DNA from: a bacterium
Lineage (GTDB): Bacteria > Planctomycetota > UBA11346
Assembly: GCA_020047915.1 (NCBI GenBank)
Contig: JAIFND010000079.1
Coordinates: forward strand, 1 to 57,253
Length of the DNA stretch: 57,253 nt
Direction: 5' to 3'
Both the position numbers and the translations under genes were made by a program. Shown here piece by piece: positions 11,291-54,481 of this stretch; position 1 is the first letter of the stretch; each line of letters begins with the position of its first letter. Under the pieces are notes generated by a model. It was given only the letters and a program-made list of their open reading frames with translations, was not told the origin of the DNA and searched no databases.

Positions 11291-11425
11291 TGTGGGAAGG
11301 CGGAAGATTTGCCACATCGCGTTGACTGGCAGACCGTCGTAGGACCGACCCGTTTTCGAATTCACGACTGGTCCGGCAGTCCTATACTGCATTTCTTCCG
11401 CCTTCCGCCTTCTCGCCTTCCACAA
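11291..11425. repeat. Heptamer (AAGGCGG/CCTTCCG) inverted-repeat hairpin element
   Basis: Left arm TGTGGGAAGGCGGAAGA, right arm TCTTCCGCCTTCCGCCTTCTCGCCTTCCACA. The spacer has an additional inner stem, GACTG..AGACC.GTCGT / ACGACTGGTCCGGCAGTC. Confidence 0.75.
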
Positions 11426-11567
11426 GTCCCCATTCCGCATCGCCCATCACAGCCGGCGGGTGTATGACAAGGCCTTCCACCTCTGCCACCCGCCCCCTTG
11501 GCCGCCCACCGCCCCCGGTCTAGCCTGCGGGTCCGCGCACCCGCAGTGCGCCACGGAGACCGTCGCC

Positions 11568-12596
11568 ATGGGCATGATCGACGCCAAGCAGGCCAAAGAC
11601 ACCCTCGGGTGCGATGACGCCACGCTGCAGCAGCACGTCAACAGCGGTGCGATCAAGGCCCAGCGCCAGGGCGGCAAGCTCCTGGTCGATGAGGACGACG
11701 TCCAGCGCCTGGCCAACAAAGAGGACGAGGAAGGCACCATCGTCCTGACCGGCGAAAGCGACAACCTGCAGATCGACCTTGGCAAGGTGGTCGATGACAG
11801 CTCTGAGACCATCGTGCAGGCCAAGGCCCAGCCCAAGGACTCGCAGCAGATCACCTTCGGCGAAGAGCTCGAAGTGGTCAGCCTCGAGGACTCGCGCACC
11901 CAGGACCTGGCGCAGACCAAGCCGACCACCGCCGCCCAGGGCCTGTCGTTCACCGACAGCAACACTGCGGTGATGACCTCGGTCGAGGATACCCAGGTCG
12001 GCGGCACCACCGCCCCGATCGAGACCGGGCCGCAGCAGGCCGGCCCCGGCGGCATGCTGCCGACCGGCGAAAGCGGCCGCCGTAGCGTGCGCTCCAGCCG
12101 TCGCGTCATGGAGACCGAGGTTGAAGTGCCGTGGTACTGGATGGCCTGTGCCGCCCTCGCCTTCGCCATCGGCATCTTCTTCATCGCTCCGTACTACGTG
12201 GTCAGCACGACCGCCCGTCAGGGTGAGAAGGATTCCGGCGGCTACGCCCTGCGTGGCGCCGATGACAACTTGTGGACCGGCATGGCCAGCGGCATCGCCG
12301 GCTTCCATGTCGAGCCGGACAAGAAGAAGTGGGAGAAGGCTGGCAACACCGGCGAATACCGCGACATCCGCCTCAAGGACCCACAGGCCCAGTGGCGCGT
12401 GTCGGGCTACCTCGGCGACCTCAGCGGCCCCGGCGAGCGCATGCAGTCCTTCCTGGTCGCTTCGGTCAATCCCGAAGGCACCAAGGCGACCAGCAAGCTT
12501 GGCAACAAGGAATACGCCCTGGTCGAGAAGACCGTGAAGTCCGAACAGGGCCCCGAGATCAAGGTCCTCGAAGCCCAGGTCTGGGCTGAGAAGTAA
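11568..12596 (+). CDS. Membrane-anchored protein with N-terminal excisionase-like HTH (HTH_17-like) and acidic linker
   Basis: IDAKQAKDTLGCDDATLQQHVNSGAIKAQRQGGKLLVDEDDVQRL, D/E-rich linker, TM WYWMACAALAFAIGIFFIAPYY. GGAG RBS before ATG 11568. Confidence 0.7.
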   Translation: MGMIDAKQAKDTLGCDDATLQQHVNSGAIKAQRQGGKLLVDEDDVQRLANKEDEEGTIVLTGESDNLQIDLGKVVDDSSETIVQAKAQPKDSQQITFGEELEVVSLEDSRTQDLAQTKPTTAAQGLSFTDSNTAVMTSVEDTQVGGTTAPIETGPQQAGPGGMLPTGESGRRSVRSSRRVMETEVEVPWYWMACAALAFAIGIFFIAPYYVVSTTARQGEKDSGGYALRGADDNLWTGMASGIAGFHVEPDKKKWEKAGNTGEYRDIRLKDPQAQWRVSGYLGDLSGPGERMQSFLVASVNPEGTKATSKLGNKEYALVEKTVKSEQGPEIKVLEAQVWAEK

Positions 12597-12618
12597 GGGG
12601 CTCGCCTGGGGCGAGCCC

Positions 12619-12701
12619 AGCTTGGAGCTTAGAGCCCGAAACCCTGTGCGGGGCGTGTGTTTGAGTGCGGGCTCAAAGCTCTAAGCTTTAAGCTCAAAGC
12701 T
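12619..12701. repeat. AGCTnnn heptamer inverted-repeat element, preceded by GGGCTCGCC-TGG-GGCGAGCCC hairpin (12598-12618)
   Basis: AGCTTGGAGCTTAGAGCCCG ... CGGGCTCAAAGCTCTAAGCTTTAAGCTCAAAGCT. Confidence 0.7.
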
Positions 12702-12772
12702 TACCAAAGCGCCCCCTTGCCGGGGCCCCGTATCCCGGCTAGCCTGCCTTCCCTACCCCTCGCGGAGTCCCC

Positions 12773-13417
12773 ATGCCCCCTGTCCGCACCCTGGCCATCA
12801 TCCCCCTCGCGCTCGTGGTCGCCCTCGGCGCCGCCGGCTGCAAGCCGCGTGGCCAGAAGGCCGCCGCCGCCGAGCAGGATGGCGGCCGCAACTCGGTCGC
12901 CCTGCAGGCCGAGAACGACGAACTGCGCAGCCAACTCGCCCAGGCCCGCGAGGAACTGGACAAGAACCAGGGCGGTACGGTCGGTGACAACGCCGCCGCT
13001 ATCGGCGTCGATGGCCTCGGCGAGGGCTGGAGCAGCGCCGGCGGCGGCAAGGTCGCCCTGGGCGAGGACTTCGCCTTCGAGAAGGGCTCGGCCAGCCTGA
13101 ACAAGGAAGGCAAGAAGGCGATCGAGAAGCTCGCCCTGCGCCTCAACGACGGCGACCTGGCCAACCACGTCGTGGTCGTCGAAGGCCACACCGACGACGC
13201 GCCGGTCAGCCGCCCGCGCACCATCGAGCTCTACACCGACAACTGGGGTCTGTCCGCCGCCCGTTCCGCCTCGGTGGTGCGCGCCCTGCAGGCCGCCGGC
13301 GTCAAGTCCGAGCGTCTGCGCGGTGCCTTCCGCGGCCAGTACGCCCCGGCCGTGACTGGCGGCAAGAAGGATGACCGCGGCGCCAACCGCCGCGTCGAGA
13401 TCTACCTGGCGAAGTAG
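12773..13417 (+). CDS. OmpA/MotB-family peptidoglycan-binding lipoprotein
   Basis: Lipobox-like LGAAGC, coiled coil, FEKGSASL, VEGHTD, NWGLSAARSASV, NRRVEI. Confidence 0.9.
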   Translation: MPPVRTLAIIPLALVVALGAAGCKPRGQKAAAAEQDGGRNSVALQAENDELRSQLAQAREELDKNQGGTVGDNAAAIGVDGLGEGWSSAGGGKVALGEDFAFEKGSASLNKEGKKAIEKLALRLNDGDLANHVVVVEGHTDDAPVSRPRTIELYTDNWGLSAARSASVVRALQAAGVKSERLRGAFRGQYAPAVTGGKKDDRGANRRVEIYLAK

Positions 13418-13450
13418 CTCTGAGCTTCGAGCTGAGAGCTGAGAGCTCGA
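13416..13450. repeat. Five tandem AGCTnnn heptamers
   Basis: AGCTCTG AGCTTCG AGCTGAG AGCTGAG AGCTCGA, overlapping the stop codon. Confidence 0.7.
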
Positions 13451-13458
13451 ATATCGGA

Positions 13459-13491
13459 CACGCCGCGGCCATGCCGCGGCGTGCTTTTTTT
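13459..13491 (+). terminator. Rho-independent terminator
   Basis: 11-bp stem CACGCCGCGGC-CAT-GCCGCGGCGTG followed by C and T7. Confidence 0.85.
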
Positions 13492-13513
13492 CCACTCACG
13501 ATAGGTTCCGCCC

Positions 13514-14740
13514 ATGCCTCGCTGTCTGATCCTGCTGCTGCTCGTCTGCGCCCTCTGCGGCGCCGAGGCCGCAGCCTCGTCAGGCACCGTGGTCGATCGG
13601 CCGGTACGTTTCGTCAACGACCGCATCGTGACGATCGGCGACATCCGCACGCGCAACGGCATGCGCATCGAAATGTGGCGCCGGGCGGCCCGCGTGCTGC
13701 CCGACAGCCGCGAAGGCCTGCTGCGCTTCAACCGCGAGACGCTCGAAGAGTTGACCGACGAGGAACTGCTGGTGCAGAAGGCCGAGGAACTGCAGGTCGC
13801 CATCGACCGCGACCGGCTGTCCTCGGATGTCATCGCTGAGGCACGCGAGCGCGGCCTCGCTCTGCGCGAGATCGCGGTGTTGCGTCGCATCCGCGACCGC
13901 GAAGCCAAGGTCGATGCGGTGCTCGGCTGGTTCGAGAGCCGGGCCGCCAGCATCTCGCCCAGCGAACTGCAGCACACCTACGACCGGCGCAAGGCCGACT
14001 TCGCCCGTCCGCCGCGCGCCCGCACCCTGCTGATCGCCCTGCGCCCGACCGGCGATGACGAGCGGCGGGAACTGGTCAAGGCGATGGCCGGCCTGATGCG
14101 CGCGGCCCAGACCGACAAGGATCCCGCCCTGGCCGCTGCCGCCGCCGGGCGCCTGGACGCTTTCCTCGCCGCCGATATGGCTGGCCAGGAGGGCATCCTG
14201 GCCGAGGTCGCCAGTGCCCTCGCCGCCCAGGCCGGACGCGAAGGGCTCGGCAAGGAATCGGCCAGCCTGGCCGCCCGGGCTGGTGAGCTGGCCACCCGTT
14301 GGAGCGGCGTCCGCAGCCGCGCCACCTGTGAAACGCTGCTCGACCAGTTGCGCGCCGAACTGCTGCAACTGCCCGCCGAACAGCGCGCTGCGGCCTTCGC
14401 CCAGCGTGCCCAGGCGATCAGCCAGGGACCGCACGCCGCCGATGGCGGCATGCTCGGCTGGGTCGAACCCAAGACCTACGGTGCCGAGATCGAAGAACAG
14501 GCCCTGGCCATGCCGCTGAACGAGCCCTCGGCCCCGTTCAGCAGCGGCGGAGCCCTGGCGATCGTCCTGGTGAGCGAACGCGAGGAAGGCCGCACGCAGA
14601 GCTTCAGCGAGGTCAGCGCCGCCCTGCAGGCCGCCCTCGATCGCGAACGGAGGGCCGAGGTGCGCCATCGCGTGACCACCGTGCTGCGTTCGCAGTCGTC
14701 GATCCGCGACGTGGTCGATTTGGACTCCCTGCTGCGTTGA
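13514..14740 (+). CDS. SurA/PrsA-like periplasmic chaperone, parvulin PPIase
   Basis: Signal peptide, VDRPVRFVNDRIVT (SurA N), FAQRAQAISQGPHAADGGMLGWV (rotamase). Confidence 0.85.
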   Translation: MPRCLILLLLVCALCGAEAAASSGTVVDRPVRFVNDRIVTIGDIRTRNGMRIEMWRRAARVLPDSREGLLRFNRETLEELTDEELLVQKAEELQVAIDRDRLSSDVIAEARERGLALREIAVLRRIRDREAKVDAVLGWFESRAASISPSELQHTYDRRKADFARPPRARTLLIALRPTGDDERRELVKAMAGLMRAAQTDKDPALAAAAAGRLDAFLAADMAGQEGILAEVASALAAQAGREGLGKESASLAARAGELATRWSGVRSRATCETLLDQLRAELLQLPAEQRAAAFAQRAQAISQGPHAADGGMLGWVEPKTYGAEIEEQALAMPLNEPSAPFSSGGALAIVLVSEREEGRTQSFSEVSAALQAALDRERRAEVRHRVTTVLRSQSSIRDVVDLDSLLR

Positions 14741-15342
14741 GTCCTGACATGGATGAGCAGGTAAGGTCGCAGCCTCCTCCGGCGTCTCCCTCCCCGATGC
14801 ACGCCGTCGCCGCGCCCGTGATGCTGGTCCCCGAGGCCACCGATCTGCTCGCCCGCGAAGAGGGCGGGGTGCGTCGGGTCCTGGGCTACTACGTGCGCGA
14901 CCACGCGGCGGTCGATGACCTGTGGCAGGAGGTGTCGCTGCGCGTGCTGCGCCGGTTGCACACCCTCGAACAGCCTGGGGCGGCACGCGGCTGGCTCTAC
15001 CAGATCGCGCGCAACGCCGCAATGGACTGGCTGCGCCGCTGCGACCGCGCCGTGGTCCGCGCGACCGGCGAGCTGCCCGAACCTACCGCCACCGGCCAGG
15101 ATGGCCGCACCCCGATCGACGATGTGCTGAGTGCCGAACGCATCAGCGCCGTGCGCCGGGCCCTGGCCGAACTGCCGCCGAGCCAGCGCGAAGCGATCCG
15201 CCTGCGCATCGAGGAGGGTCTCGACCACGTGCAGATCGCCGAGCGCCTGGGCATCAACCGCCAGGCCGTCGAGGTGCGCCTGTGCAAAGGTCGGGCCGCG
15301 CTGCGTGAACGCCTGGCCGACATCTTCGAGGGCGACTTATGA
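14737..15342 (+). CDS. ECF RNA polymerase sigma factor
   Basis: DDLWQEVSLRV, WLYQIARNAAMDWLRR, LPPSQREAIRLR, IAERLGI. Start uncertain (14737, 14749 or later). Confidence 0.9.
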   Translation: MSPDMDEQVRSQPPPASPSPMHAVAAPVMLVPEATDLLAREEGGVRRVLGYYVRDHAAVDDLWQEVSLRVLRRLHTLEQPGAARGWLYQIARNAAMDWLRRCDRAVVRATGELPEPTATGQDGRTPIDDVLSAERISAVRRALAELPPSQREAIRLRIEEGLDHVQIAERLGINRQAVEVRLCKGRAALRERLADIFEGDL

Positions 15343-15839
15343 GTGAGGCCATGACCTGCGCCGAGGCCGAGCCTCTGCTGCCGCTGGTCGCCGACGGCGC
15401 TCTCGATCCGGACAGCGATCCGCAACTCTTCGCCCATCTTGCCACGTGTGCTGACTGCCAGCGCATCGTGGCCACGCATGACCTGATCGGTCTGGCCCTG
15501 CGTGCACCTGCGCCGCCCGCACGCCGGCCTTCGGTGATCCTCCGCTTCTGGCCCGCGCTGCCGGTGGCGGCTGCGGCGGCCCTGGCCTTCGCCTTGTGGC
15601 CCACCACGCCCGTCGTCGTGGCGCCACAGACTCCGACCATCGTGCACGCCCCGGCAGTCGCACCGCCGGTCGTTGTCACGCCGGTTGCGCCCCCGCGTGT
15701 CATCGCGCTGGCCCAGGCGGACGGCACCCAGATATACCTGGTGCAGTCGGGCGAGCACTGGACCGTGGTCAATCCCGCCGACCTCGATTCCGGCGCACAA
15801 AAACCGCAGACCGCCAACGGCGTGCAGGTCCGCTACTGA
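15339..15839 (+). CDS. zf-HC2 (ZAS) anti-sigma factor
   Basis: HLATCADC zinc motif, single TM, ATGA overlap with the sigma factor. Confidence 0.85.
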   Translation: MSEAMTCAEAEPLLPLVADGALDPDSDPQLFAHLATCADCQRIVATHDLIGLALRAPAPPARRPSVILRFWPALPVAAAAALAFALWPTTPVVVAPQTPTIVHAPAVAPPVVVTPVAPPRVIALAQADGTQIYLVQSGEHWTVVNPADLDSGAQKPQTANGVQVRY

Positions 15840-15860
15840 CTTCGAGACTCGCACAAGAAT

Positions 15861-15987
15861 CCACAGGGAGGACCAGAGCCACCAGAGGTCAAGCCAAGGC
15901 TTTGCTTCTTCTTTCGCGCCCGGCCAACGAGAGCGATGCACCCTGCAACCCCATTCCCTCTCTGATCCCTCTGGTCCTCTGTGTGAA
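15861..15987. repeat. TIR-less relative of the MITE core (9-bp-period CAGAG/CTCTG hairpin)
   Basis: CCACAGGGAGGACCAGAGCCACCAGAGGTCAAGCCAAGG matches the MITE left interior. Right arm CTCTGATCCCTCTGGTCCTCTGTGTGAA. Confidence 0.75.
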
Positions 15988-15996
15988 ATACTTGAA

Positions 15997-16145
15997 CCTA
16001 AACGCAGCATTTCACACAGAGAACCAGAGCCACCAGAGGTCAAGACAAGGATTTGCGCAATTTCTCGGGTTCACCCGGACGGTGCATGTCCATTTCCCCT
16101 CTGGTCACTCTGGTGCTCTGTGTGACCCCTATCGCCGGGTTTAGG
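15997..16145. mobile_element. MITE copy 2 (149 bp)
   Basis: CCTAAAC...GTTTAGG flanked by TTGAA direct repeat (15992-15996, 16146-16150). Confidence 0.85.
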
Positions 16146-16166
16146 TTGAATGAAGCCTGACCGCGA

Positions 16167-18905
16167 TCAGCCGGTGGTGCGCAATCCGCCGGCGATGGCG
16201 TTGACCGTCATCAGCAGCGAAGCCAGCAGGCCGTCGGCCGCCGCCTGGTCGCCGCTGCGGCGCAGGTCGCGCCAGCGCCGCATCAGCGCAATCTGATGCG
16301 CATGCAGCGCACGTAGGCCGGCATCGCGCAGCTGCAGCGTGCGCGCCAGGCGCGGCCGGCGCTCGGCGAGCGGCGCCCCGAACAGCCGGTCGAGCATGCG
16401 CACGGTGCGCGCGTGCTCGTCGAGGATGCGCGCCAGGAAGGACTCGCGGATCTCGCGGTCGGAGACCAGCGCGGCGTAGTCGCGCATCAGGTCGGGGGCG
16501 GTCGAGGCGAGGTTGCTCTCGATGTTCGACAGCGCGTAGGTCAGGAAGCGCCAACCGCGTACGCCCTCGCGCAGGCGCGCGAAACCGGCGGCATCGGTCT
16601 GTTCAAGCTGTTCCAGCGCGGTGCCCAGGCCATACCAGCCTGGCAGGTAGTGGCGCGACTGGTTCCAGCCGAAGACCCACGGGATGGCACGCAGATCGGC
16701 CAGCGTGCGCTTGCCGCTGCGCCGCGACGGACGGCTGCCGATCGCGGCATGCTCCAGTACGTCGATCGGCGTCGCCTCGACGAAATAGGTGAGGAAGCCG
16801 TCGGTGTTCAGCAGGCGCTCGTAGGCATCCCGGCTGCCCTCGGCCAGGCGATCGACCAGCGGATGCAGATCGGCCCATGGATCGGCGGCCGGCCGGGCAT
16901 GGCGCGCAGTCGCTGCAACCGTGCCGGCGACGAGCAGCTCGAGGTGATAGGTCGCGGTCAGCAGGTTGGCGAACTTCTGCGCGATCACCTCGCCCTGTTC
17001 GGTGATGCGGATGTCGCCCGACAACGAACCGTGCGGCAGCGCTTCGAGGAAGCGGTGGGTGGGGCCGGCGCCGCGCGACACCGTGCCGCCCCGGCCATGG
17101 AAGAAGCGGATCGGTATGCCGGCCTCGGCGCCGACGCGCGCCAGCAAGTCCTGGGCGCGGTGCAGATTCCACTGGCTGGCGAGGATGCCGCCGTCCTTGC
17201 ACGAGTCGCTGTAGCCAAGCATCACCTGCTGCGGTGCCGTGCCCTGGATCGCCAGGCTGCGCCGGGTGACCGGGTGGGCGAGGAAGGCGCGCAGGATCTC
17301 GCCCGAGCCGCGCAGGTCGCCGATCGTCTCGAACAGCGGCACCACCGGCAGCTCGCAGGCCAGACCGGCGCCGTGGCCGGTGTCGGCGACCCAACGCACC
17401 AGGCCGGCTTCGCGCGCGAGCACATAGACCGCCAGCAGATCGGAGAGCGACCGCGTCATCGACACGATCAGGGCGCCGAGGCCGTCTCGGCCATGCACCG
17501 CCCGGTGGGCGGCCAGCGTGCGATGTGCGCCGATCACCCGCGCCGCGTCCTCGCCCAAGGCGGCATCGGCGTGCAGCAGCGGCCGCGCGGTGCGCAGTTC
17601 GGAGTCGAGCAGCGCCAGGCGCTCCTTCTCGCTCCAGCTGGCCCAGCCGGCCGCCTCGATGCCGGCGGCGCACAGCAGTTGCGCCAGCGCGGCATCGTGC
17701 ATCGCGCTGTTCTGGCGCACGTCGAGGGCGGCGAGATGGAAGCCGAGGCACTCGACGGTGCGCTCGACCGGGGCCAGTTCCAGGCGCACCAGGCGCCGCG
17801 CCCCGACCTCGTCGAGGGCGCCGCGCAGCACCGCCAGGTCGGCGAGCAGTTCGTTCGGCGAACGGTACATCCCGGGCAGCGCATCGTCGCCGCCATCGGG
17901 CAGGCGCGCCAGGCACAGCGAGCACCATTGCCGCCACGGTTCCAGCGGATTGCGCTTCAGCGCCGCGGCACCGGCCTCGCCGAGCAGTTCGGCGCGGGCG
18001 CTGATCGCGCTGGCGAAGGCGATGGGCGGGGCCTGCAGGCGGGCCGACAGCGACAGGCGTTCGGCGAGGTGGCGCAGGGCCGAGCGGTGCACGCCCAGCG
18101 CGGCCCGGCGCAGCTCGTTCAGCGTGGTGGCGGTGACGTGCGGAGTCACTCCAGGGTGGCCATCGCGGTCGCCGCCGACCCACGAGCCGAAGCGCACGCG
18201 TGGCAGCCGGCCCTGGCCATCAAGGGCGGCCTCGTCCCAGCCCAGGTCGCGCCAGGCGGTGCGCAGGCGCTGGTCGGTGCGCACCACAGCCTCGGGGAAG
18301 ACATCGCGCAGGTGGTGCAGGACGTTGCGTCGCTCGGAAGCGACGTCGGGCTTGACCAGGCGGATCTCGCCGGTGCGCCACAGGCGCTCGACCAGCGCGG
18401 TGACCTCTTCACGGATGTGTTCTTGCTCGGCCGGGGTCCACATGGTGTTCTCGCGCCGCACCAGCGCGAGATACAGCTCGCGCTGCGCCGCGATCACGGT
18501 GCTGCGTTTGGCCTCGGTGGGATGCGCGGTCAGCACCGGCTCGACGCGCACCGCCGGCAGCAGTTTGGCGATATCCTGCTGGGTGAAACCGCTGCGCTGC
18601 AGGCCAGCCAGGGCGGCGCCCCATTGGCCGGGCTCGGCGCTGACGCCGTCGTCGCTCTCGCGTTTGCGTCGCGCCTGGTTGGCGGCGTTCTCCTCGACCA
18701 TGTTGAGCAGCTGGAAGGCGAGCGAGAGCATCTGCACCTCGCGCTCCTCGAGGGTCTGCGGCAGGGCGCTGGCACCGTGCCACGGCAGTCGCCCGGCGAG
18801 TTCGCGGTGGCCGAGACCGGCCAGCACATCGTGGAAGCAGGCCATGACGAACGCGAGATCGCGTTCCAGCTTGGCGAAGGCGAAATCGACGATCGGTGCG
18901 GCCAT
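16167..18905 (-). CDS. ppc: Phosphoenolpyruvate carboxylase
   Basis: VLTAHPTE, SWVGGDRDG, VVPLFET, QVMLGYSDSCKDGG, FHGRGGTVSRG, LRAIPWVF, C-terminal GLRTTG. Confidence 0.97.
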   Translation of the reverse strand: MAAPIVDFAFAKLERDLAFVMACFHDVLAGLGHRELAGRLPWHGASALPQTLEEREVQMLSLAFQLLNMVEENAANQARRKRESDDGVSAEPGQWGAALAGLQRSGFTQQDIAKLLPAVRVEPVLTAHPTEAKRSTVIAAQRELYLALVRRENTMWTPAEQEHIREEVTALVERLWRTGEIRLVKPDVASERRNVLHHLRDVFPEAVVRTDQRLRTAWRDLGWDEAALDGQGRLPRVRFGSWVGGDRDGHPGVTPHVTATTLNELRRAALGVHRSALRHLAERLSLSARLQAPPIAFASAISARAELLGEAGAAALKRNPLEPWRQWCSLCLARLPDGGDDALPGMYRSPNELLADLAVLRGALDEVGARRLVRLELAPVERTVECLGFHLAALDVRQNSAMHDAALAQLLCAAGIEAAGWASWSEKERLALLDSELRTARPLLHADAALGEDAARVIGAHRTLAAHRAVHGRDGLGALIVSMTRSLSDLLAVYVLAREAGLVRWVADTGHGAGLACELPVVPLFETIGDLRGSGEILRAFLAHPVTRRSLAIQGTAPQQVMLGYSDSCKDGGILASQWNLHRAQDLLARVGAEAGIPIRFFHGRGGTVSRGAGPTHRFLEALPHGSLSGDIRITEQGEVIAQKFANLLTATYHLELLVAGTVAATARHARPAADPWADLHPLVDRLAEGSRDAYERLLNTDGFLTYFVEATPIDVLEHAAIGSRPSRRSGKRTLADLRAIPWVFGWNQSRHYLPGWYGLGTALEQLEQTDAAGFARLREGVRGWRFLTYALSNIESNLASTAPDLMRDYAALVSDREIRESFLARILDEHARTVRMLDRLFGAPLAERRPRLARTLQLRDAGLRALHAHQIALMRRWRDLRRSGDQAAADGLLASLLMTVNAIAGGLRTTG

Positions 18906-18973
18906 GGACGGCGGCTTAACCCGGCGCCGCCGCGCGGCAAGGCGGGCGGGGCAAACCCCGGACGGGGGGAATC

Positions 18974-19122
18974 GTTCGGCGTTCGGCGTTCGGCGTTCGG
19001 CGTTCGGCGTTCGGCGTTCGGCGTTCGGCGTTCGGCGTTCGGCGTTTTCGGCGTTCGGCGTTCGGCGTTCGGCGTTCGGCGTTCGGCGTTCGGCGTTCGG
19101 CGTTCGGCGTTCGACGTGCGGC
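18974..19122. repeat. Tandem heptamer array (GTTCGGC) x ~21
   Basis: 10 perfect units, one unit with a TT insertion, 8 perfect units, 2 degenerate units. Short inverted arm GAACGCCGAAC at 19210-19220. Confidence 0.95.
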
Positions 19123-19231
19123 GTTGGGGACAGGTGAGATATATCGACGGTTTCACATCACCCGCCTGCTGAGTCGCCAAAAACCGTCTATCCCACGCAG
19201 GCCCCTGCGGAACGCCGAACCAATCGCACAG

Positions 19232-20359
19232 TCAGTTTTCCCGCTCCAGCGCACACGAGGACGCGCAAATGCCCAGGCCCAGCCAGCACACCACCAGGGA
19301 GGAGCCGCCGTAGCTGACGAAGGGCAGGGTGACGCCGGTCACCGGCATCATGCCGGTGGCGACGCACAGGTTGATCGCCGCCTGGCCGCCGGTCAGGCAG
19401 GTGAAGCCGGCGCACAGCAGGCGGCTCCACGGGCCGGGGGCGCGCGAGGCGGCGATCAGGCCGGCCGCGCACCACGCCAGCAACAGGATGGCGAACAGGG
19501 CCGAGCCGACGAAGCCGACCTCCTCGCCGATCACCGCGAAGACCAGGTCGGTGTGCTTCTCGGGCACCCAGCCGAGGCGGTTCTGCTCGCCCTGCATGTA
19601 GCCCTTGCCGACCCACTGCCCGCTGCCGATCGAACGTTTCGAACGTTCGGTCTGGTAGGCCTCGGCCAGGGCATAGTTCTCGGGATGCAGGAAGGCGTCG
19701 ATGCGCCGCCACTGGTAGGCCTTGGGACCTTCGCGCGGCAGGACGTGGTAAGCCCCGACCACGGCGGTGGCGACGAGCAGCCCGGCGAGCACCAGCCAGC
19801 GCAACTTGATGCCGGCCACCAGCAGGATGCCGAGCACCATCGGCGGGATGGTCAGGGCGCTGCCCAGGTCCTCGCGTGCGACGACCGCCATGGGAATCCC
19901 GGCGACCAGCAGCACCCAGCCGCAGTGCGCCAGGCGCCGGGCGTCGAAATTCGGCCCTGCCGCCAGGGTCGCGCAGGTCAGCAGGGTGGCGAGTTTGACC
20001 AGTTCGACCGGCTGCAGGCGCAGGCCGCCAAGCACGATCCAGTTCGCTTGGCCCTTGATGCGCGGCACCAGCGCGGTGCCGGCAAGCAGCAGCATCAGCA
20101 GCATCACCGCAAGACCGGCGATGGCGGCCGGGAAGGCCAGATTGCGCCAGGTGGTCGGCGAGACGTGCAGGGCGATGGCTGCGGCGATGCCGCCGAACAG
20201 CCACCACAGCAGCTGGGCGCCCGTCTCGCGTGAGATCCAGCCGTCGCTGGCCCCGTCAGCCGTGGCGCTGGCGACGAAGAACATGCCGACCAGCGACAGC
20301 GCCGCGCTCAGGCTCAGCCACCACCACGGGACGCGGGCGTAGACGGGCCGGTGGAGCAT
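19232..20359 (-). CDS. rodA: SEDS-family peptidoglycan polymerase (RodA/FtsW)
   Basis: LQPVELVK, EDLGSA, IGSGQWVGKG, PEKHTDLVF, PVTGVTLPFVSYGGSS. Confidence 0.88.
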   Translation of the reverse strand: MLHRPVYARVPWWWLSLSAALSLVGMFFVASATADGASDGWISRETGAQLLWWLFGGIAAAIALHVSPTTWRNLAFPAAIAGLAVMLLMLLLAGTALVPRIKGQANWIVLGGLRLQPVELVKLATLLTCATLAAGPNFDARRLAHCGWVLLVAGIPMAVVAREDLGSALTIPPMVLGILLVAGIKLRWLVLAGLLVATAVVGAYHVLPREGPKAYQWRRIDAFLHPENYALAEAYQTERSKRSIGSGQWVGKGYMQGEQNRLGWVPEKHTDLVFAVIGEEVGFVGSALFAILLLAWCAAGLIAASRAPGPWSRLLCAGFTCLTGGQAAINLCVATGMMPVTGVTLPFVSYGGSSLVVCWLGLGICASSCALEREN

Positions 20360-20369
20360 GGCGCCTGGA

Positions 20370-21371
20370 TCAGTGCGCCCGGTGCGGACGCGGACGCGAC
20401 ATGGTGCGCTGGTACGGCTCGGCGCGCTCGCACTCGCCGAGCACCTGGCGGAACAGGTCGGGCAGCGGGCTTTCGAAACGGATGCGGCGTCCGCTGCGCG
20501 GGTGGTCCACTTCCAGCGAGAAGGCGTGCAGCATCAGGCGCGGCGCGCGCGCGTCGGCGCGTTCCTTGCCGTACACCCGGTCGCCCATCACCGGGCAGCC
20601 GATCGCGGCCAGGGCGACGCGCACCTGGTGGGTGCGGCCGGTGCCGAGTTCAACTTCGAGTTCGGCGTGGCGGGCGAAGCGACGCAGCACCTTGTAGCGC
20701 GTCACGGCCTCGACTCCGGCCTCGTCCTCCTCGACCAGGGCGCGCCGGCCATCGGCGCCGCGACCCTGCTTGCCGCGGATCTCGTCGGCGTCGGCGCGCG
20801 GCTGCCCGGCGACCACGCAGCGGTAGGTGCGCACCGCCGAGGTGCCGGCGAACTGTGCCGCCAGCATGCGTTGCGCCTCGCGGGTCAACGCGACCGCGAT
20901 GCAGCCGCTGGTGTCGCGGTCGAGGCGGTGGACGACGCCGAGGAAGCCGGCCTCGCGGCCCTGCTTGCGCAGCTGCCGGCGCAGCACCTCGCCGACGTGG
21001 TGGACCTTGCGCTCGCCCGGGGGCGGCACCGAAGCCAGGCCGCTCGGCTTGTCCACGATGCACAGCTGCTCGTCGAGGTGCAGGATGCCGAGGCTGATCA
21101 CCTGCTCGATCGGCGCCTCGCCGTGACGCGCCCGCACCCACGGGGTGCGCAGGCCCTGGCGCAGGTCGAGCTCGGCGGTGGCGCCGCCGGCCGGGACCAC
21201 CGCTTTGGGATCTTCGCACAGCGTGCCACCCAGCTTCAGCAGCTTGGAGCGCATCGCCTTGCGCGCCTGGGCGCGCGACAGGCCAGTGATGGCACCGGCC
21301 AGGGCCTCGAACACGGGCTGGTCGGCGGTGGCCAGGCGTACCCGGTGGAGGCTGTAGAGGTCCTGCGTCAT
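20370..21371 (-). CDS. RluA/RluD-family pseudouridine synthase
   Basis: S4-like N-terminus, VDKPSGL, VHRLDRDTSG, TGRTHQVR, GDRVYG, LMLHA. Confidence 0.92.
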   Translation of the reverse strand: MTQDLYSLHRVRLATADQPVFEALAGAITGLSRAQARKAMRSKLLKLGGTLCEDPKAVVPAGGATAELDLRQGLRTPWVRARHGEAPIEQVISLGILHLDEQLCIVDKPSGLASVPPPGERKVHHVGEVLRRQLRKQGREAGFLGVVHRLDRDTSGCIAVALTREAQRMLAAQFAGTSAVRTYRCVVAGQPRADADEIRGKQGRGADGRRALVEEDEAGVEAVTRYKVLRRFARHAELEVELGTGRTHQVRVALAAIGCPVMGDRVYGKERADARAPRLMLHAFSLEVDHPRSGRRIRFESPLPDLFRQVLGECERAEPYQRTMSRPRPHRAH

Positions 21372-21518
21372 GGCGGGGGATGACAGCAGATAGGAGGAGG
21401 AATGGAAGGCGGGAATGGCAGACGAACCCTTGCAGTCCCGATGCGCATGCGCACAGAAGAGCATCCGAGGTGGCCATGCCGGCCTTACGCGGATCCACAC
21501 CTGGAAGGCGACCACCTG

Positions 21519-22844
21519 ATGCCCCCCGCCAACAGCGCCAAGACCTTCGTCATCGACACCAACGTGCTGCTGCACAACCCGGCCTCGCTGTTCGCCTTCG
21601 CCGACAACCACGTCGTCATACCCATGGTCGTGCTGGAGGAGCTCGACAAGTTCAAGACCGCCAGCAACGAGCTGGGCCAGAACTCGCGTGAGGTCGCGCG
21701 CGCCCTCGACCGCCTGCGCCACCAGGGCAGCCTGCGCTCGGGCGTGGTCACGCCCCAGGGCGGCACGATCCAGGTGCTGATGGACTACGCCGACGTGGAC
21801 GGCATGGCGCCTGGGATCAACGACAACCGCATCCTCGGCTGCGCAGCGGCGCTGAAGAAGGCCGGGCACAATGTCTTCTTCATCTCCAAGGACATCAACG
21901 CGCGGGTCAAGGCCGATGCGCTGGACATCCCCAGCGAAGATTTCAAGGCGATGCGCGTCAACGTGGACGAGCTGTACACCGGCTATGTCACCGTCGAGGT
22001 CTCCGGCGACGAGGTCGATGACCTGGCGCACAAACCGCAGACCGATCCGGCGACCCTGGTCCCCAAAGAGGATCTGCCGCTGGTGTGGAACCAGTTCGTG
22101 GTGCTGCGCGACCGTACCGACAAGGATCACACCGCCCTGCTGCGCTTCGACGGCGCCTCCGGCATGTTGCGGCCGCTGGTCGAGGAACCGCCCGAGATCT
22201 ACAGCGTCACGCCGCGCAGCCCCGAGCAGCGCATGGCCTTCGAGCTGCTGCTCGACGACCGGGTGAAGCTGGTCACCCTGGTCGGGCGCGCCGGCACCGG
22301 CAAGACCCTGCTCGCCCTGGCCTGCGGCCTGAACAAGGTGATCGACTCCGAACGCTACAAGAAGCTGCTGGTGTCGCGGCCGATCATGCCGTTGGGCGCC
22401 GACATCGGCTACCTGCCCGGGTCGAAGGACGACAAGCTGCAGCACTGGATGGGCCCGATCTTCGACAACCTGCACTTCCTGCTCGCCAGCGAGGAGCGCG
22501 ACCCCGACGACGTGATCAAGCGGCTGATCGCCGAGGAGACGATCACGATGGAGGCGCTGACCTACATCCGCGGCCGTTCGATCGCGCGCCAGTTCGTGGT
22601 CGTGGACGAGGCGCAGAACCTGACCCCGCACGAGATCAAGACGATCATCTCGCGCGCCGGCGAGGACACCAAGGTGGTGCTGACCGGCGACCCGCACCAG
22701 ATCGACAACCCCTACCTCGACTCGAACTCGAACGGCCTGACCCACGTGGTCGAGCGCCTGCGTGGCCAGGAGCTGGCCGGGCATGTGACCTTCACCAAGT
22801 CGGAGCGCTCGGTGCTGGCGGGAGTCGCTGCGGATATTCTATAG
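21519..22844 (+). CDS. PhoH2-type protein (PIN domain plus PhoH ATPase)
   Basis: FVIDTNVLLH, VLEELD, NDNRIL, GRAGTGKT, IGYLPG, YIRGRS, DEAQN. Confidence 0.95.
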   Translation: MPPANSAKTFVIDTNVLLHNPASLFAFADNHVVIPMVVLEELDKFKTASNELGQNSREVARALDRLRHQGSLRSGVVTPQGGTIQVLMDYADVDGMAPGINDNRILGCAAALKKAGHNVFFISKDINARVKADALDIPSEDFKAMRVNVDELYTGYVTVEVSGDEVDDLAHKPQTDPATLVPKEDLPLVWNQFVVLRDRTDKDHTALLRFDGASGMLRPLVEEPPEIYSVTPRSPEQRMAFELLLDDRVKLVTLVGRAGTGKTLLALACGLNKVIDSERYKKLLVSRPIMPLGADIGYLPGSKDDKLQHWMGPIFDNLHFLLASEERDPDDVIKRLIAEETITMEALTYIRGRSIARQFVVVDEAQNLTPHEIKTIISRAGEDTKVVLTGDPHQIDNPYLDSNSNGLTHVVERLRGQELAGHVTFTKSERSVLAGVAADIL

Positions 22845-22872
22845 GCTTGGGGGCCTGCGGCCCCCAAGCCTA
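22842..22872. terminator. Perfect 14-bp hairpin joining two convergent stop codons; probable bidirectional terminator
   Basis: TAGGCTTGGGGGCC-TGC-GGCCCCCAAGCCTA. Confidence 0.7.
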
Positions 22873-40239: not shown

Positions 40240-40303
40240 GGCGGGGGATTATGGGCCTGGTACCCCGCTGGGAAGCGGTCGCTGACGCTGCAGTCTTGTG
40301 CTG

Positions 40304-41105: not shown

Positions 41106-41267
41106 TGCCACTAGGGGTTAGGCCGGTCCATTGCCCCTAGGGGTTAGGCCGATCCATTGCCCCTAGGGGTTAGGGGTTAGGGGTTAGGCTGCGGACTAAA
41201 CCCTGTGGCAATGGCGGTGCAATGTCCCTAACCCCTAACCCCTGTGGCAATGGGAATTGGGGCAATG
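41103..41267. repeat. Composite repeat: 26-bp unit x3 containing TTAGGGG heptamers, plus inverted arm
   Basis: CATTGCC(A/C)CTAGGGGTTAGG starts at 41103, 41129 and 41155; the third copy is expanded to (GGGGTTA)3. Inverted CCCTAACCCCTAACCCCTGTGGCAATG at 41226-41252. Confidence 0.9.
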
Positions 41268-43393: not shown

Positions 43394-43483
43394 AATGCCA
43401 AATGCTGGAATGTCGGAATGCTGGAATGGAAAGACAGACGGCTGCCCGTATTCCAGCATTTCAGCATTCCAGCATTTGGCATT
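43394..43483. repeat. Octamer (AATGCTGG/CCAGCATT) inverted-repeat element
   Basis: Arms at 43394-43427 and 43450-43483 pair at 31 of 34 positions. Confidence 0.9.
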
Positions 43484-43507
43484 CGTGGCAATGCGTTATC
43501 CTCGGAC

Positions 43508-51873: not shown

Positions 51874-51879
51874 GTTTCC

Positions 51880-54219
51880 GTGTCTCTTGAACCACAGCTG
51901 CGCACCCTGACCCGCGGCCAGACCCTGGCCCTGGTCTCCGTCATCGTCGTCTCGGTGGGCGTCAGCGGCGTCATCGTGTGGCAGAGCCATCAGGTCTCGG
52001 AAATCGCCACGCCGCAACGCGAGGCGGCGGCGCAGATGGAGGCGGCCTTGGCCGCTGCGGCTGGCCGGATCGAACTGCTGGGTGCGGCTGACGGCCGCGC
52101 ATCGGTGATGGCGGCCGGACGCGCCGCCGAGCAGGCGATGACGGCCTGTCGGACGGCGGCCCAGAACCTGGACCAGCGCATGGGTGGAGTGCGCACGGGG
52201 CAGGCCCTGGTCGAACTCGAGGCGCTGTGCAAGCGCCTGGGCGAGGTGCGGCTCGAGCGCGCGAGCGCGATCGAGACCGGTGCGGAAGCGGTGCGCCAAG
52301 TGGATGCTGGCGTGGCGCAGATGACGGTCAGCCTCAACCGCTTGGTCGAGGTCGCCGCGCGGCGGCGCAGTGAGGCTCAGGAACAGCTCAATCAGGCTCA
52401 GGCGGCGAGTAGCCGCAACAACCAGGATCTGCACCGCCTGTCCAGGTTGCGCGAACTGGTCGCCCAGTTGCGCAGCATGGTTGATCGCCCGCTGGCCATC
52501 GACAGTCGGCATCGGTTGAATCCCCTCCTCGACCGCGTCCAGGCCCAGGTCGAGGGCATGCGCAGCGAACTGAGTGGAGCCGTCCCGGCCGAGGCGGCGA
52601 TCCTCAGTGCGCTTGATGTGTTCCTCACAGGCTACGCCGATCCGGCGGATGGGCTGCTTGCTCGGCGGCGGGCGCAACTGGTCGACCTGGCCGCCGAAGC
52701 GCCCCGCGCGGCCTACTTTGAACGCGCCCGCGTCCTGGCCAGCAGCGTCGAGACCTGGCTCTCGTCCCTGGCGGAATTGGCCGACCCGCTGCATGTCGCG
52801 GTGATCGAAGCCGAGCGTACCACGGCCGCCTCGATCGCGACGATGGTCGATTGCGTAACCCTGGAAATGGTCGCGCGCGACGCCCTGCTGTCGGCCCGCA
52901 TCCTCGCAGACGACGTCAGTGGATTCGCTGCGCGGGCGGCGGACAACACCACAATCCGCGCTTTCCGCCAGGGAGCCGTGTCGCGCTTGCGCGACCTGCG
53001 CGTCAAGCTGGGAATCGTGCATGGACTGTGCGAAAAGGCCGGCGCGGTCGAGGACGCGCGGCAGGTGGACGAGATCCGCATCCTGGTGTCCAAGGTCGAG
53101 CCGCTGCTTTCGGGCCAGGACGGCCTGTCGGTAGCGGTGGAGAAACGCGTCGCAGCCGAGGCGGCGGCCAATCAGTCGTCCGCGCAGGTGCCCGAGTCGC
53201 TGCGCTTGGCGCACACCCAGGTCGAGGACCTCTCTGGGCAGGCGCGCACCGCTCAGGAGGGGGCACTCGGGCGCATGCAGCTGGTCGCCAAGCTGGCGAT
53301 CGCGGTCCTCGCCGGCATCGGCGCCCTGGCCCTGCTGTTCGGTCGGCGCGTTGCTCGCCGGGTGTCTGGCGGCATCCTGGAATCCGAGGCGCGCGATCAC
53401 GCCCAGGCCCAGCGCATGCGGACGATGATCGAAGAGGTGGCCGGCTCGGCCAAGACCGTGTCCGGAGCCTCCGGAGGCCTGGTTGCCGCGAGTTCCACCC
53501 TGGCCCAGGCGGCGGACGCCAGCCGCGCGCAGTCCGATGCGGTCGCGCACGGTGTGCAGCAGGTCAACGCCGCGGTCGGCTCGGTGGCGACCGCTTCCGA
53601 GCAGATGCAGGCGACCATGAGCGAGATCGCACGGCAGACCAGCCGCGCGGCCGAGGTCGCGCGCGCAGCCGTCAACCACGCCGGCAGCAGCGCCGCGGCG
53701 GTGGACAATCTTGGCGTATCGAGCCGCGAGATCGGCAAGATCGTCGAGCTGATCGCCGGCATCGCCGAGCAGACCAACCTGCTGGCGCTGAACGCGACCA
53801 TCGAAGCGGCGCGGGCCGGTGATGCCGGTCGTGGCTTCGCCGTGGTGGCCGGCGAGGTGAAGTCGCTGGCCAAGCAGTCCGGGAACGCCAGCCAGGACAT
53901 CGCCCGGCGCATCAGCGCGATCCAGGCCGACGTCGCTGCAGCCACCGCTGCGATCGGTTCGATCCGCACCGTGGTCGGCGAGATCGACGGCATCCAGGGC
54001 ACGATCGCCAGCGCGGTCGAGGAGCAGACCGCGACCAGCCGCGAGATCACTGGCTCGCTGACCACCGCTGCCGCCACATGCCGGTCGATCGCCGAGCAGA
54101 TCCAGGCCGTGGTCGGGGCGGTGGTCCAGACCGCAGAGCAGGCCGGGGCGGTACAGCGCCTCGCCGACGAGCTGTCGGCGACCGCGCGCCAACTCGACGA
54201 GCAGGTGGCGAAGGGCTGA
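51880..54219 (+). CDS. Methyl-accepting chemotaxis protein with large periplasmic domain
   Basis: Two TM segments; [34 protein letters not shown]. Confidence 0.92.
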
Positions 54220-54244
54220 TCAGCCCAGGTTGACCCCTTGCAGG

Positions 54245-54481
54245 CTCACGCGGAGGAATCTGTCGCGATCCCTTGGGAATTGATCCTTAACGCAGCATTT
54301 CACACGGAGAACCAGAGCCACCAGAGGTCAAGACAAGGATTTGCGCGATTTCTCCGGTTCACCCGGACGGTGCATGTCGATGTACCATGCAAAGCATTTC
54401 CCCTCTGGTCACTCAGATGCTCAGTGTGACCCCTATCGCCGAGTTGAGGTTTTCTCCGCGGCTCACGCGCCTTCGCGTGAG
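54245..54481. repeat. CTCACGCG/CGCGTGAG inverted-repeat element hosting MITE copy 3
   Basis: CTCACGCGGAGGA (54245-54257) and TCTCCGCGGCTCACGCGCCTTCGCGTGAG (54453-54481). Confidence 0.6.
54285..54449. mobile_element. MITE copy 3 (165 bp, diverged)
   Basis: CCTTAAC...GTTGAGG, same interior with a ~16-bp extra segment. Left flank TTGAT; no clean duplication on the right. Confidence 0.8.

Follow-up and report, generated by a model that had tools for sequence, protein, structure and literature searches.

Why does one stretch of a Planctomycetota genome carry hairpins at eleven places that share a single design, in which a short word repeated in tandem is followed by a spacer and by the same word repeated in reverse complement? 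The stretch (the window, 57,253 nt in all) was the subject of an earlier note, which suggested that the hairpins may be empty or non-autonomous cassettes related to those that carry IVP or GxxExxY genes. Our analysis supports that relationship. We consider it likely that the hairpins of the window are gene-less, non-autonomous members of small palindromic cassette families, built like the IVS of 23S rRNA.

Hairpin loci of the window

Hairpin structures were present at all eleven places, and two of them were incomplete (13416, a lone array, and 18974, whose partner has decayed). Table 1 gives their coordinates. An additional copy of the CCAGAG-type MITE lay outside the range 11291–54481 and sat in the left junction of an inversion.

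Table 1. Word-repeat features of the window, with positions counted from its first letter
Feature	Position	Strand	Structure and setting	Related elements
CCAGAG-type MITE, extra copy	~10125-10268	.	ends CCTAAAC...GTTTAGG, inner arms TTCACACAGAGAACCAGAG...	
AAGGCGG-family hairpin	11294-11423	.	left arm short, right arm (CTTCCGC)n; flanked by divergent genes	core in 17-member core subfamily
AGCTnnn-family hairpin	12619-12702	.	immediately after terminator-like stem	same arms as IVP cassette G000:C159
Lone AGCTnnn array, 4.5 units	13416-13447	.	starts at stop codon; no inverted partner; separate canonical terminator downstream	
CCAGAG-type MITE, two tandem copies	15861-15989 and 16010-16127	.	period 8-9 arms	arm type of the kind flanking GxxExxY genes in the phylum
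(CGTTCGG)21 expanded left arm, unique spacer, decayed right arm GAACGCCGAAC	18973-19221	.	left arm 18973-19125; partner ~19206-19221 degraded to ~1.5 units	unit matches IVP cassette G000:C56
AAGGCGG-family hairpin	26796-26944	.	stem ~40 bp	core in 13-member subfamily
CCAGAG-type MITE, short copy	28435-28510	.		
GGAACGGAG hairpin	40303-40391	.	ends TTCACAG...CTGTGAA	arms near-identical to those flanking the GxxExxY gene, G000:C244
TTAGGGG-family element	41103-41262	.	left arm (TAGGGGT)n, right arm (CCCTAAC)n; also 26-nt sub-repeat CATTGCCCCTAGGGGTTAGG...	same arms as IVP cassette G000:C189
8-mer AATGCTGG hairpin	43394-43485	.	flanked by divergent genes	same arms, outer GCCAAATG...CATTTGGC included, as IVP-like cassette G000:C13
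Outer CTCACGCG/CGCGGAG-type hairpin	54245-54481	.	judged by eye	
CCAGAG-type MITE copy	54296-54432	.	nested in loop of 54245-54481 hairpin	

The window held 16 period-7 arrays of at least 17 nt, compared with a mean of 3.9 and a maximum of 9 in 100 dinucleotide shuffles; about six of the 16 were short, GC-rich and at the level of chance. When eight loci were folded as RNA, their z-scores lay between −3.5 and −8.7, and a comparison of the window with Rfam returned no match at the gathering score. As had been claimed, the window lacks IVP and GxxExxY genes: none occurred on its contig.

Word families and gene-bearing cassettes in the genome

We searched the whole genome (G000, 3.97 Mb, assembly 79.8% complete) for arrays and clustered them by unit. 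TRF found 738 period-7 arrays of at least three copies; the counts for periods 6, 8 and 9 were 229, 81 and 153, respectively. The units had been thought unrelated from locus to locus, but they fell into a few genome-wide families, led by AAGGCGG (165 arrays), AACGCCG (143), AGCCTCC (94), AAAGCTC (78) and AACCCCT (65), with others following. Five heptamer families comprised 685 arrays, which formed 232 ordered left-to-right pairs, or hairpins, within 400 bp. Arm order was constant in each family (65/65, 37/38, 21/21, 20/20 and 9/9), the median arm length was 31–32 nt in four of the five, arms tended to hold about four units, convergent pairing was favored, and the loop was shorter than 140 bp in 227 of the 232 hairpins.

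Eight word families were recognized in all. In five of them, one copy carried a gene from a known family of small proteins. Each word family showed one such copy or none, alongside some 10 to 65 complete gene-less hairpins. Homogeneous cores were seen in the GGAACGGAG family (25 gene-less copies; homogeneous in 20 copies of 93–95 nt), in the CCAGAG MITE (about 40 copies, spacing 75–77 nt) and in three subfamilies of AAGGCGG. Contigs frequently broke inside hairpins.

The genome contained five matches to PF05635 (23S-rRNA-IVP). All five adjoined arrays and four lay inside clear inverted arms, the IVP gene of C241 having arrays on one side only. A single TIGR04256 (GxxExxY) match occurred, inside inverted arms of 9-nt period. 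An automatic, unordered 10-mer test scored three of the five IVP genes as bracketed, versus 18 of 3130 predicted genes. An ordered test for G-rich and C-rich flanks, which misclassifies arms without G/C skew, gave 2/5 versus 6/3130; the unordered test and direct reading were used. The IVP genes had a GC content of 56–65%, versus 69% for predicted genes, and the protein of C189 matched a solved S23p-type pentamer, 2gsc (E 4e-24). All copies were located between or beside protein genes, not at helix 25/45 of 23S rRNA, and a search of the assembly for 23S (LSU) rRNA genes found none. An RNase III homologue was encoded (157 bits, E 6e-46).

Five of the window's unit types recurred in the arms of the gene-bearing cassettes: TTAGGGG (at 41103), AGCTnnn (12619/13416), GTTCGGC (18974), AATGCTGG (43394) and GGAACGGAG (40304). 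Gene-bearing and gene-less copies therefore have arms in common, and the proposed tie between each unit type and a protein of its own is supported for these five. For AAGGCGG, the largest family, for GGCTGGA and for the CCAGAG MITE, no gene-bearing copy was found in this 79.8% complete assembly. The notion of one shared design with unrelated units can be refined: the arms fell into two classes, one of period 7–8 with IVP genes and one of period 8–9, CAC(A/G)GAG-like, with GxxExxY genes.

Gene-less copies resembled full cassettes in their arms and not in their interiors. Loops were unique in 148 of the 232 hairpins, and 127 of 185 loops tested had no other match in the genome, indicating that the gene-less copies are not simple deletion derivatives. 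We rejected the idea that loops are deletion remnants of full cassettes, as the arms alone match. Capture of genome fragments was also without support, given the 127 of 185 unmatched loops; 12 loops matched two non-coding places. The spacers had been described as less GC-rich than coding DNA. This was correct relative to predicted genes (62.1% versus 69.1%) but did not extend to intergenic DNA (63.9%), so low GC does not set the spacers apart from intergenic sequence overall. Arm pairs 400–6000 bp apart numbered only five; one was the IVP cassette of C56, and the rest enclosed ordinary genes or a nested hairpin.

Congeners and the wider phylum

The hairpins were not fixed among relatives; no movement event was observed. 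Three orthologous gaps were compared among congeners, and each was filled, empty or occupied by other units. The gap orthologous to 11294–11423 was empty in two congeners and held other heptamer hairpins in two more, that of 12619–12702 was empty in G003 and G005, and that of 26796–26944 was empty in G006, G003 and G002. Three-copy AAGGCGG hits numbered 218 in G000, 85 in G003 and 5 in G005, with none in four further congeners. G003 shares AAGGCGG, yet no IVP gene with AAGGCGG arms was found there.

The same gaps were occupied repeatedly, and these included stop-start junctions within operons. At one stop-start junction, between two hydratase-subunit genes, G000 carried an IVP cassette with GTTCGGC arms (C56), G003 carried a different IVP cassette with GTTCGCG arms (C192), and the junction was empty, at 7–10 nt, in G002, G004, G005 and G006. 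The two proteins were only 42% identical while the flanks were 78–84% identical; therefore C56 and C192 are different cassettes at one site, and we rejected the alternative that the words had drifted in concert. The gene-less arms followed the resident cassette: GTTCGGC gave 292 three-copy hits in G000 and none in G003, and GTTCGCG gave none in G000 and 192 in G003. In these two species, then, gene-less arms match the gene-bearing cassette of their own species.

In G006 the gene-bearing form was present in many copies, with 30 PF05635 matches. One of its IVP copies was aligned with seven others; in five cases the similarity extended across the whole span between the arrays, and two alignments stopped before the far array. 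Despite these 30 matches, the largest contigs of G006 contained 2.9 arrays per 100 kb, showing that array density is not a simple function of IVP gene number.

We then surveyed the phylum with one locus per genome, scoring a gene as bracketed when it was flanked by an inverted repeat of at least 20 nt. IVP genes were bracketed in 22 of 29 cases (control 0/53), and 18 of the 22 bracketed loci were periodic, 12 with period 7 and 4 with period 8. GxxExxY genes were bracketed in 20 of 30 cases (control 0/57). Seven of the 29 IVP genes and 10 of the 30 GxxExxY genes had no inverted repeat of this length. The repeats flanking both kinds of gene measured 20–43 nt, apart from one outlier of 96 nt. Thus such arms do bracket cargo genes, in G000 and beyond it.

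Origin of the hairpins and comparison with known systems

A cassette has a stem of about 25–35 bp, each arm consisting of three to five tandem copies of one short word, with a loop inside that in a full cassette holds one small gene. Class I pairs arms of period 7 (sometimes 8) with a four-helix-bundle 23S_rRNA_IVP/S23p gene. Class II pairs a GxxExxY (PD-(D/E)XK-like) gene with arms of period 8–9, whose words resemble CAC(A/G)GAG and whose ends are TTCAC. Each genome has its own set of words. We consider it quite likely that gene-less copies derive from the gene-bearing copy or stay homogenized with it. By analogy with rRNA IVS, RNase III may well cut the long perfect stems in transcripts, which would free the insert and leave the flanking cistrons intact. 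We suggest only tentatively, and with some doubt, that the encoded protein recognizes the word of its own cassette and works in trans at the gene-less copies. An unlikely extension is that the words form a recognition code, in which the IVP pentamer ring or the GxxExxY nuclease would read the four or five words of its own arms, one per subunit, and drive the copying of any hairpin that carries them. We know of no recombinase activity in either the IVP or the GxxExxY family.

A different reading is that the arrays arose by local replication slippage and were selected as terminators, mRNA stabilizers or G-quadruplexes, with the small genes as mere passengers. Copy number is indeed variable, with 21 units at 18973 and arrays in G006 that reach 146 nt. 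Members of the AGCT and AACGTCG families seldom lie between divergent genes, and transcript hairpins could block exonucleases. Moreover, GGGAATC and GGGGAYT repeats fold into G4 and prefer four units, according to Rehm et al. 2015 (PMC4692102). Among the five main words here, however, G-tracts occur in TTAGGGG alone; arrays of AAGGCGG, GTTCGGC, AGCTTTG and GGCTGGA lack four runs of at least three G. The view in the earlier note that these are not ordinary terminators also stood. No T-run of the kind expected of an intrinsic terminator followed the stems that we inspected directly in the window, and the array at 13416 has its separate terminator. Nor do the hairpins simply mark transcript 3' ends, since divergent genes flanked 23 of 160 same-unit pairs, and AAGGCGG hairpins favored divergent gaps (30) over convergent ones (7). 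Slippage would leave unexplained why 20–65 complete hairpins per family share one word, arm length and inner-border motif and differ between congeners. It would also not account for the bracketing of two small, mutually unrelated gene families at rates far exceeding the controls. We regard this origin as quite improbable.

Mobilization of REPIN-like doublets by REP-associated tyrosine transposases (RAYTs) is very improbable. The hairpins do resemble REPINs in being intergenic inverted doublets of many copies in several lineage-specific families, and the genome has four RAYT-like genes, three scoring 81–99 bits against NF047646 (cut-off 80) and the fourth having a 28-bit Pfam match as its sole support, as well as one IS200-type TnpA. 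But each RAYT gene was bounded on both sides by its own distinct short, GC-rich REP palindromes and none by word-repeat arms, and the genes found inside word-repeat arms were IVP and GxxExxY, not RAYT. This flank test led us to reject RAYT as the cognate enzyme. Addition of words by a reverse transcriptase or telomerase-like enzyme was dropped because the only reverse transcriptase of the genome is a group II intron maturase.

Descent from a classical DDE transposon family absent from the assembly, which would make the hairpins ordinary MITEs, is extremely doubtful: terminal inverted repeats, the homogeneous cores and the breaking of contigs within hairpins in an assembly that is 80% complete would suit it, but no transposase lay inside such arms in 232+5 pairs, the only same-arm partners found encode IVP or GxxExxY proteins (three families having none), and no target-site duplication was noticed when four filled/empty comparisons with diverged flanks were read by eye.

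We return to the reading of the hairpins as gene-less cassettes. To our knowledge, dispersed heptamer repeats and ORF-bearing rRNA IVS have been known for some 35 years without an explanation of their origin or function. The genome studied here displays the two as one system unusually clearly, with words that switch together with the gene-bearing cassette between species. This makes a descriptive puzzle accessible to direct tests of word binding by the S23p/IVP ring or by the nuclease GxxExxY, of hairpin movement and of stem cleavage in RNA. Annotation and assembly are affected as well: contigs break at the elements, gene ends are lengthened or overlapped by them, and in operons they can come to lie between two cistrons. 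If the recognition-code reading were true, dispersed heptamer repeats such as STRR and the Xanthomonas pairs, together with the rRNA IVS, would be one widespread, undescribed mobile system of protein plus word, targeted to stop-start junctions.

REP and REPIN elements are intergenic inverted doublets that form hairpins, with many gene-less copies, an association with RAYTs and lineage-specific families. The elements described here are alike in their hairpin doublets and their many gene-less copies, and for each family at most one associated gene was found. They differ in that each arm repeats a word in tandem where a REP is a single palindrome, and in that the genes associated with them do not encode tyrosine transposases. 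In Nostoc, Elhai and colleagues reportedly described (in 2008) small dispersed repeats that lie within arrays of tandem heptamers, and are said to have described no cargo gene. Those repeats are similar in their modular nesting with heptamer arrays, as in the nested MITE at 54245–54481.

Cyanobacterial STRR are dispersed heptamer repeats. In the text of Rehm et al. 2015 (PMC4692102) available to us, the GGGAATC heptamers of Xanthomonas and the GGGGAYT heptamers of Nostoc are intergenic, number hundreds per genome and prefer about four units, G-quadruplexes are proposed for them, and Xanthomonas has 70–75 convergent GGGAATC pairs per genome; that text makes no mention of a link to S23p or any other gene. 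Like the repeats of Xanthomonas, Nostoc and STRR, the arrays described here are tandem, 7-nt, dispersed, mostly intergenic and present in many copies. In contrast, most of the words here cannot form G4, and word families can be assigned to a cassette that carries a gene, with none found for three.

The closest comparison is with the IVS. The Coxiella 23S rRNA IVS, as described in the available part of PMC4990558, has a 28-bp stem, an S23p ORF, tandem heptamers in the 5' stem region and cleavage by RNase III, and ORF-bearing 23S rRNA IVS (Coxiella, Leptospira and others) are there called sporadic and regarded as selfish. In the literature that we consulted on heptamer hairpins together with S23p or GxxExxY genes, the link appeared only in passing, in these Coxiella heptamers (PMC4990558, the same part). 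The gene-bearing cassettes likewise have an inverted-repeat stem (about 25–35 bp) around a PF05635 ORF. The elements described here differ from IVS in sitting between protein genes and not in rRNA. One genome has several word families, GxxExxY genes are a second kind of cargo, and most copies are gene-less, with the PF05635 ORF absent from the window loci and present in only four to five copies elsewhere in G000. Heptamer hairpins and IVS-type IVP/GxxExxY cassettes share arms, and two types of bacterial repeat that have long lacked an explanation are thereby linked.

Hairpins of the window and their word families

An earlier note had named a series of window loci at which tandem short words (an arm) are followed by a loop and by their reverse complement. 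By direct reading, we found hairpin-like elements at every one of these places, but two were incomplete. Locus 13416 was a single array followed by a normal terminator, and at locus 18973 the word CGTTCGG was expanded to 21 copies and the partner arm had decayed. RNA folds at eight window loci had z-scores of −3.5 to −8.7 relative to dinucleotide shuffles. The window contained 16 period-7 arrays of at least 17 nt, whereas 100 shuffles averaged 3.9 and never exceeded 9; about six of the 16 were short, GC-rich and at chance level.

A TRF scan of the whole genome (draft assembly of 3.97 Mb in 248 contigs, 68.5% GC, completeness 79.8%) showed that period 7 stood out, with 738 arrays of at least three copies, compared with 229, 81 and 153 arrays for periods 6, 8 and 9, respectively. 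The commonest words were AAGGCGG (165), AACGCCG (143), AGCCTCC (94), AAAGCTC (78), AACCCCT (65) and AACGTCG (42). The note's further claim that the units were unrelated from locus to locus did not survive, because the window units fell into genome-wide families with few dominant words.

We merged the words into five families, yielding 685 arrays, and pairing with a limit of 400 bp gave 232 arm pairs; loops were shorter than 140 bp in 227 of these. Arm order was constant within families (65/65, 37/38, 21/21, 20/20 and 9/9), which is non-trivial because swapping the arms yields another sequence whichever strand is read. Median arm length was 31–32 nt in four of the five families, the TTAGGGG family had modes near 18 and 32 nt, and the inner borders of the arms were conserved (e.g., gaagAGTTGC...GCAATTcttc and CGCAG...CTGCG). 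Genes were predicted with a simple codon-usage caller (3130 genes, 88% coding) that served only to distinguish coding from intergenic DNA; the main families were almost entirely intergenic. Arrays of AAGGCGG lay between divergent genes in 30 cases versus 7 between convergent genes, and therefore the arrays of this family are not simply 3'-end signals.

The loops belonged to core subfamilies in 84 of the 232 pairs, versus zero links in the shuffled control. This proportion varied by family: 46/65 for AAGGCGG, 16/20 for TTAGGGG, 20/63 for GTTCGGC, 2/36 for GGCTGGA and 0/48 for AGCT. No other match in the genome was found for 127 of 185 tested loops; thus, one arm type goes with several unrelated cores. 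Many apparently lone AAGGCGG arms were pairs split by contig ends within multi-copy cores.

Lone arms of the GGCTGGA family, (TCCAGCC)n, often started within a gene's 3' end or exactly at it. Lone right arms of this family numbered 28 and lone left arms 12. This and other individual observations are located in the table.

Locations and contents of the features described. G000 is the window's own genome and G001–G006 are congeners; C-numbers are contigs and L-numbers are loci from relatives.
Feature	Location	Arms or content
IVP cassette	G000 C189	TAGGGGT...CCCTAAC
IVP cassette	G000 C159	GAGCTTn...GCTCAAA
IVP cassette	G000 C56	GTTCGGC...GAACGTC
IVP cassette	G000 C13	AATGCTGG...TTCCAGCA
IVP gene	G000 C241	arrays on upstream side only
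Tandem triplication, period 85 nt	G000 C189:2317-2518	right arm of TTAGGGG IVP cassette plus ~50 nt alongside
Nested elements	G000 C74:21604-22131	AGCT left arm, complete GTTCGGC hairpin, 92-aa ORF (minus strand, family unknown), AGCT right arm
GGCTGGA-family arm	G000 C123:4139-4861	encodes final residues of an ordinary gene
117-aa IVP loci, examples	G006 L110 (C90), L104, L107, L113, L116, L118, L121, L124	between CGACCAG/CTGGTCG arrays
Orthologous gap	window 11218-11459	G000 AAGGCGG hairpin; G003 GGGTTTC/CGCGAAC hairpin; G006 (CTGGTCG)15 hairpin; G002, G005 empty (73-83 bp)
Orthologous gap	window 26776-26965	empty in G006, G003, G002
Orthologous gap	window 12597-12735	empty in G003, G005; lone array in G006
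Stop-start junction	G000 C56:23370-23851	490-bp IVP cassette, GTTCGGC arms
Stop-start junction	G003 L106, C192	different IVP cassette, GTTCGCG arms
Stop-start junction	G001	three CGCAGAT words
Stop-start junction	G002, G004, G005, G006	empty: TGA, 7-10 nt, ATG
RAYT-like gene	G000 C81:36265-36837	
RAYT-like gene	G000 C154:3601-4209	
RAYT-like gene	G000 C173:28107-28688 (-)	
RAYT-like gene	G000 C40:~790-1388	
Group II intron reverse transcriptase/maturase	G000 C99:499-1950	TIGR04416, 426 bits
Very large Ser/Thr kinase genes	window 4457-8122 and 34657-38553	first type of extra match: leucine-rich-repeat families, internalin-like (one gene); second: weak GldK-like match (E 8e-5) at the C-terminal end (other gene)
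Coding repeat, 27/54 nt	window 8192-8307	inside adjacent ORF 8119-9243
Inverted segment	window 10339-25996	left junction (10114-10339) with CCAGAG-type MITE copy; right junction just ~36 bp

Gene-bearing copies in the same genome

The idea that these hairpins are related to cassettes carrying IVP (PF05635, 23S_rRNA_IVP/S23p) or GxxExxY (TIGR04256) genes was supported, in that gene-bearing copies with the arms of window loci were found elsewhere in the genome. All five PF05635 matches adjoined tandem arrays, and four of the five lay between clear inverted arms. The single GxxExxY match (contig C244) lay between TTCACAC(T/G)GAGGAACGGAGGGAACGGA arms, and its cassette fitted tightly between the stop codon of a preceding gene and the start codon of a following one; judged from their translated ends, these two genes look like rtcB and rtcA. 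The gene-bearing arms were those of window loci 41103, 12619/13416, 18974, 43394 and 40304, and the match often extended to the bases immediately outside the words. Hairpins with AATGCTGG arms comprised about ten gene-less copies and one gene-bearing copy, and those with GGAACGGAG arms 25 and one, respectively. None of the approximately 40 genomic copies of the CCAGAG MITE (a gene-less element of period 8–9) carried a gene, and in the assemblies searched (the window's own genome being 79.8% complete) no gene-bearing copy was found for AAGGCGG, GGCTGGA or the CCAGAG MITE.

An automatic test for complementary arrays bracketing a gene was positive for 3/5 IVP genes versus 18/3130 predicted genes. 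A stricter, ordered version, which misreads arms lacking G/C skew, gave 2/5 versus 6/3130 (Fisher p = 6e-5). The GC content of the IVP genes was 56–65%, compared with 69% for predicted genes, and three of them were overlooked by the codon-usage caller, as would be expected of genes with foreign codon usage. A match to the solved structure 2gsc (E = 4e-24) was obtained for the C189 protein; 2gsc is described as a ring-shaped homopentamer whose subunits are four-helix bundles (PMC4990558).

Filled and empty sites among relatives

Matches to three copies of AAGGCGG numbered 218 in the window's genome, 85 in G003 and 5 in G005, and there were none in the four remaining congeners; among 54 more distant genomes, two had 1–2 matches. 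In sampled contigs, period-7 arrays per 100 kb were 26.4 in G000, 7.5 in G003, 6.4 in G001, 3.4 in G004, 2.9 in G006 and 2.0 in G002. Three orthologous gaps read in the congeners were variously filled, empty and differently filled; thus, the hairpins are not fixed. The same gaps were occupied repeatedly, in each species with its own words.

We also compared, across seven congeners, the junction separating a pair of neighbouring genes that resemble those of hydratase subunits. The cassette proteins of G003 and G000 at this junction were only 42% identical, whereas the flanking genes were 78–84% identical in DNA. The junction, with its several states, is either a hot spot or a case of cassette replacement. 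No target-site duplication was noticed by eye in the congener comparisons. Three copies of GTTCGGC (at most one mismatch) occurred 292 times in G000 and zero times in G003, and three copies of GTTCGCG zero and 192 times, respectively. For this species pair, therefore, the numerous hairpins without a gene carry, in either species, the word of its own gene-bearing cassette. The comparisons show both reuse of gaps, operon junctions included, and words matched species by species.

PF05635 matches numbered 30 in G006, 6 each in G001 and G005, and 2 in G003, with none in either G002 or G004; 25 of the 26 loci examined in the genus adjoined period-7 or period-8 arrays, the exception being on contig C8 of G001. 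The C13 protein and one from G001 (C41) were 72% identical and had AATGCTGG arms in common; in pairs at or below 56% identity, the words differed. The gene-bearing cassette was multi-copy in G006, and comparing one copy with seven others showed similarity from array to array in five, while two alignments ended before the far array.

The G006 subtype encodes 117 aa, with about 30 matches, many of them nearly the same in sequence and frequently paired convergently; its flanking arrays were 50–146 nt long, and a conserved GCGCGGCGCGCTGCGCGC palindrome lay ~70 nt from the gene. One window segment has the opposite orientation in at least four congeners (G002, G003, G005, G006), in which gene 10339-11256 adjoins the orthologue of 26031-26775. 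Full-length identity of the window's PEP carboxylase with counterparts from uncultured Planctomycetota did not exceed 80%.

In a phylum sample of 121 genomes, PF05635 was present in 62 and GxxExxY in 55. With the best locus taken from each genome listed by the search, an inverted repeat of at least 20 nt bracketed 22 of 29 IVP genes, versus 0/53 (maximum 17 nt) for positions shifted by 900 bp; 18 of the 22 brackets were periodic (12 of period 7, four of period 8, and one each of periods 6 and 9). GxxExxY genes were bracketed in 20 of 30 cases versus 0/57 controls. Assembly artefacts do not account for the arm length, because the positives include finished single-contig genomes. The GxxExxY arms across the phylum had period 8–9 and the words CACAGAG, CGCAAAG or CACGGAG, and resemble those of the window's CCAGAG MITE and loci 40304 and 54245.

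Interpretation and comparison with known systems

On the most probable reading, the window loci represent the gene-less form of palindromic cassettes that resemble an IVS (intervening sequence of 23S rRNA). There are two classes: in one, IVP genes go with period 7–8 words, and in the other, GxxExxY genes go with period 8–9 words similar to CAC(A/G)GAG. Both forms have one architecture and common arms, and are present or absent among relatives. The gene-less copies probably derive from the gene-bearing copy or are maintained by it, and the cassette-encoded protein may recognise its word.

Two other candidates were rejected. The only reverse transcriptase found in the genome was a group II intron maturase. 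RAYT (REP-associated tyrosine) transposases were dismissed as cognate enzyme, their flanks being classical REP palindromes and never word arms. The genome has four RAYT-like genes and one IS200 TnpA; three of the former reach the NF047646 cut-off, and the C40 gene has a 28-bit Pfam match alone. Every RAYT-like gene has its own short GC-rich REP palindromes on both sides, differing from gene to gene, and together they make up a distinct group of REP-RAYT systems.

In the main texts searched, chiefly from non-subscription journals, we found no work that connects dispersed hairpins of heptamers with cassettes carrying S23p or GxxExxY genes. Convergent heptamer pairs with a four-unit preference were described in Xanthomonas and Nostoc by Rehm et al. 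(2015), who propose G-quadruplexes; the abstract and passages available of that paper draw no link to a gene (PMC4692102). Heptamer-derived satellites are listed by Subirana and Messeguer (2019; PMC6749651). In passing, the paper on the Coxiella IVS mentions heptamers within the stem of that element, and for rRNA IVS it shows that the stems are cut by RNase III (PMC4990558). An RNase III homologue is present in the window's genome, and by analogy with rRNA IVS, RNase III may cut the cassette stems in RNA.
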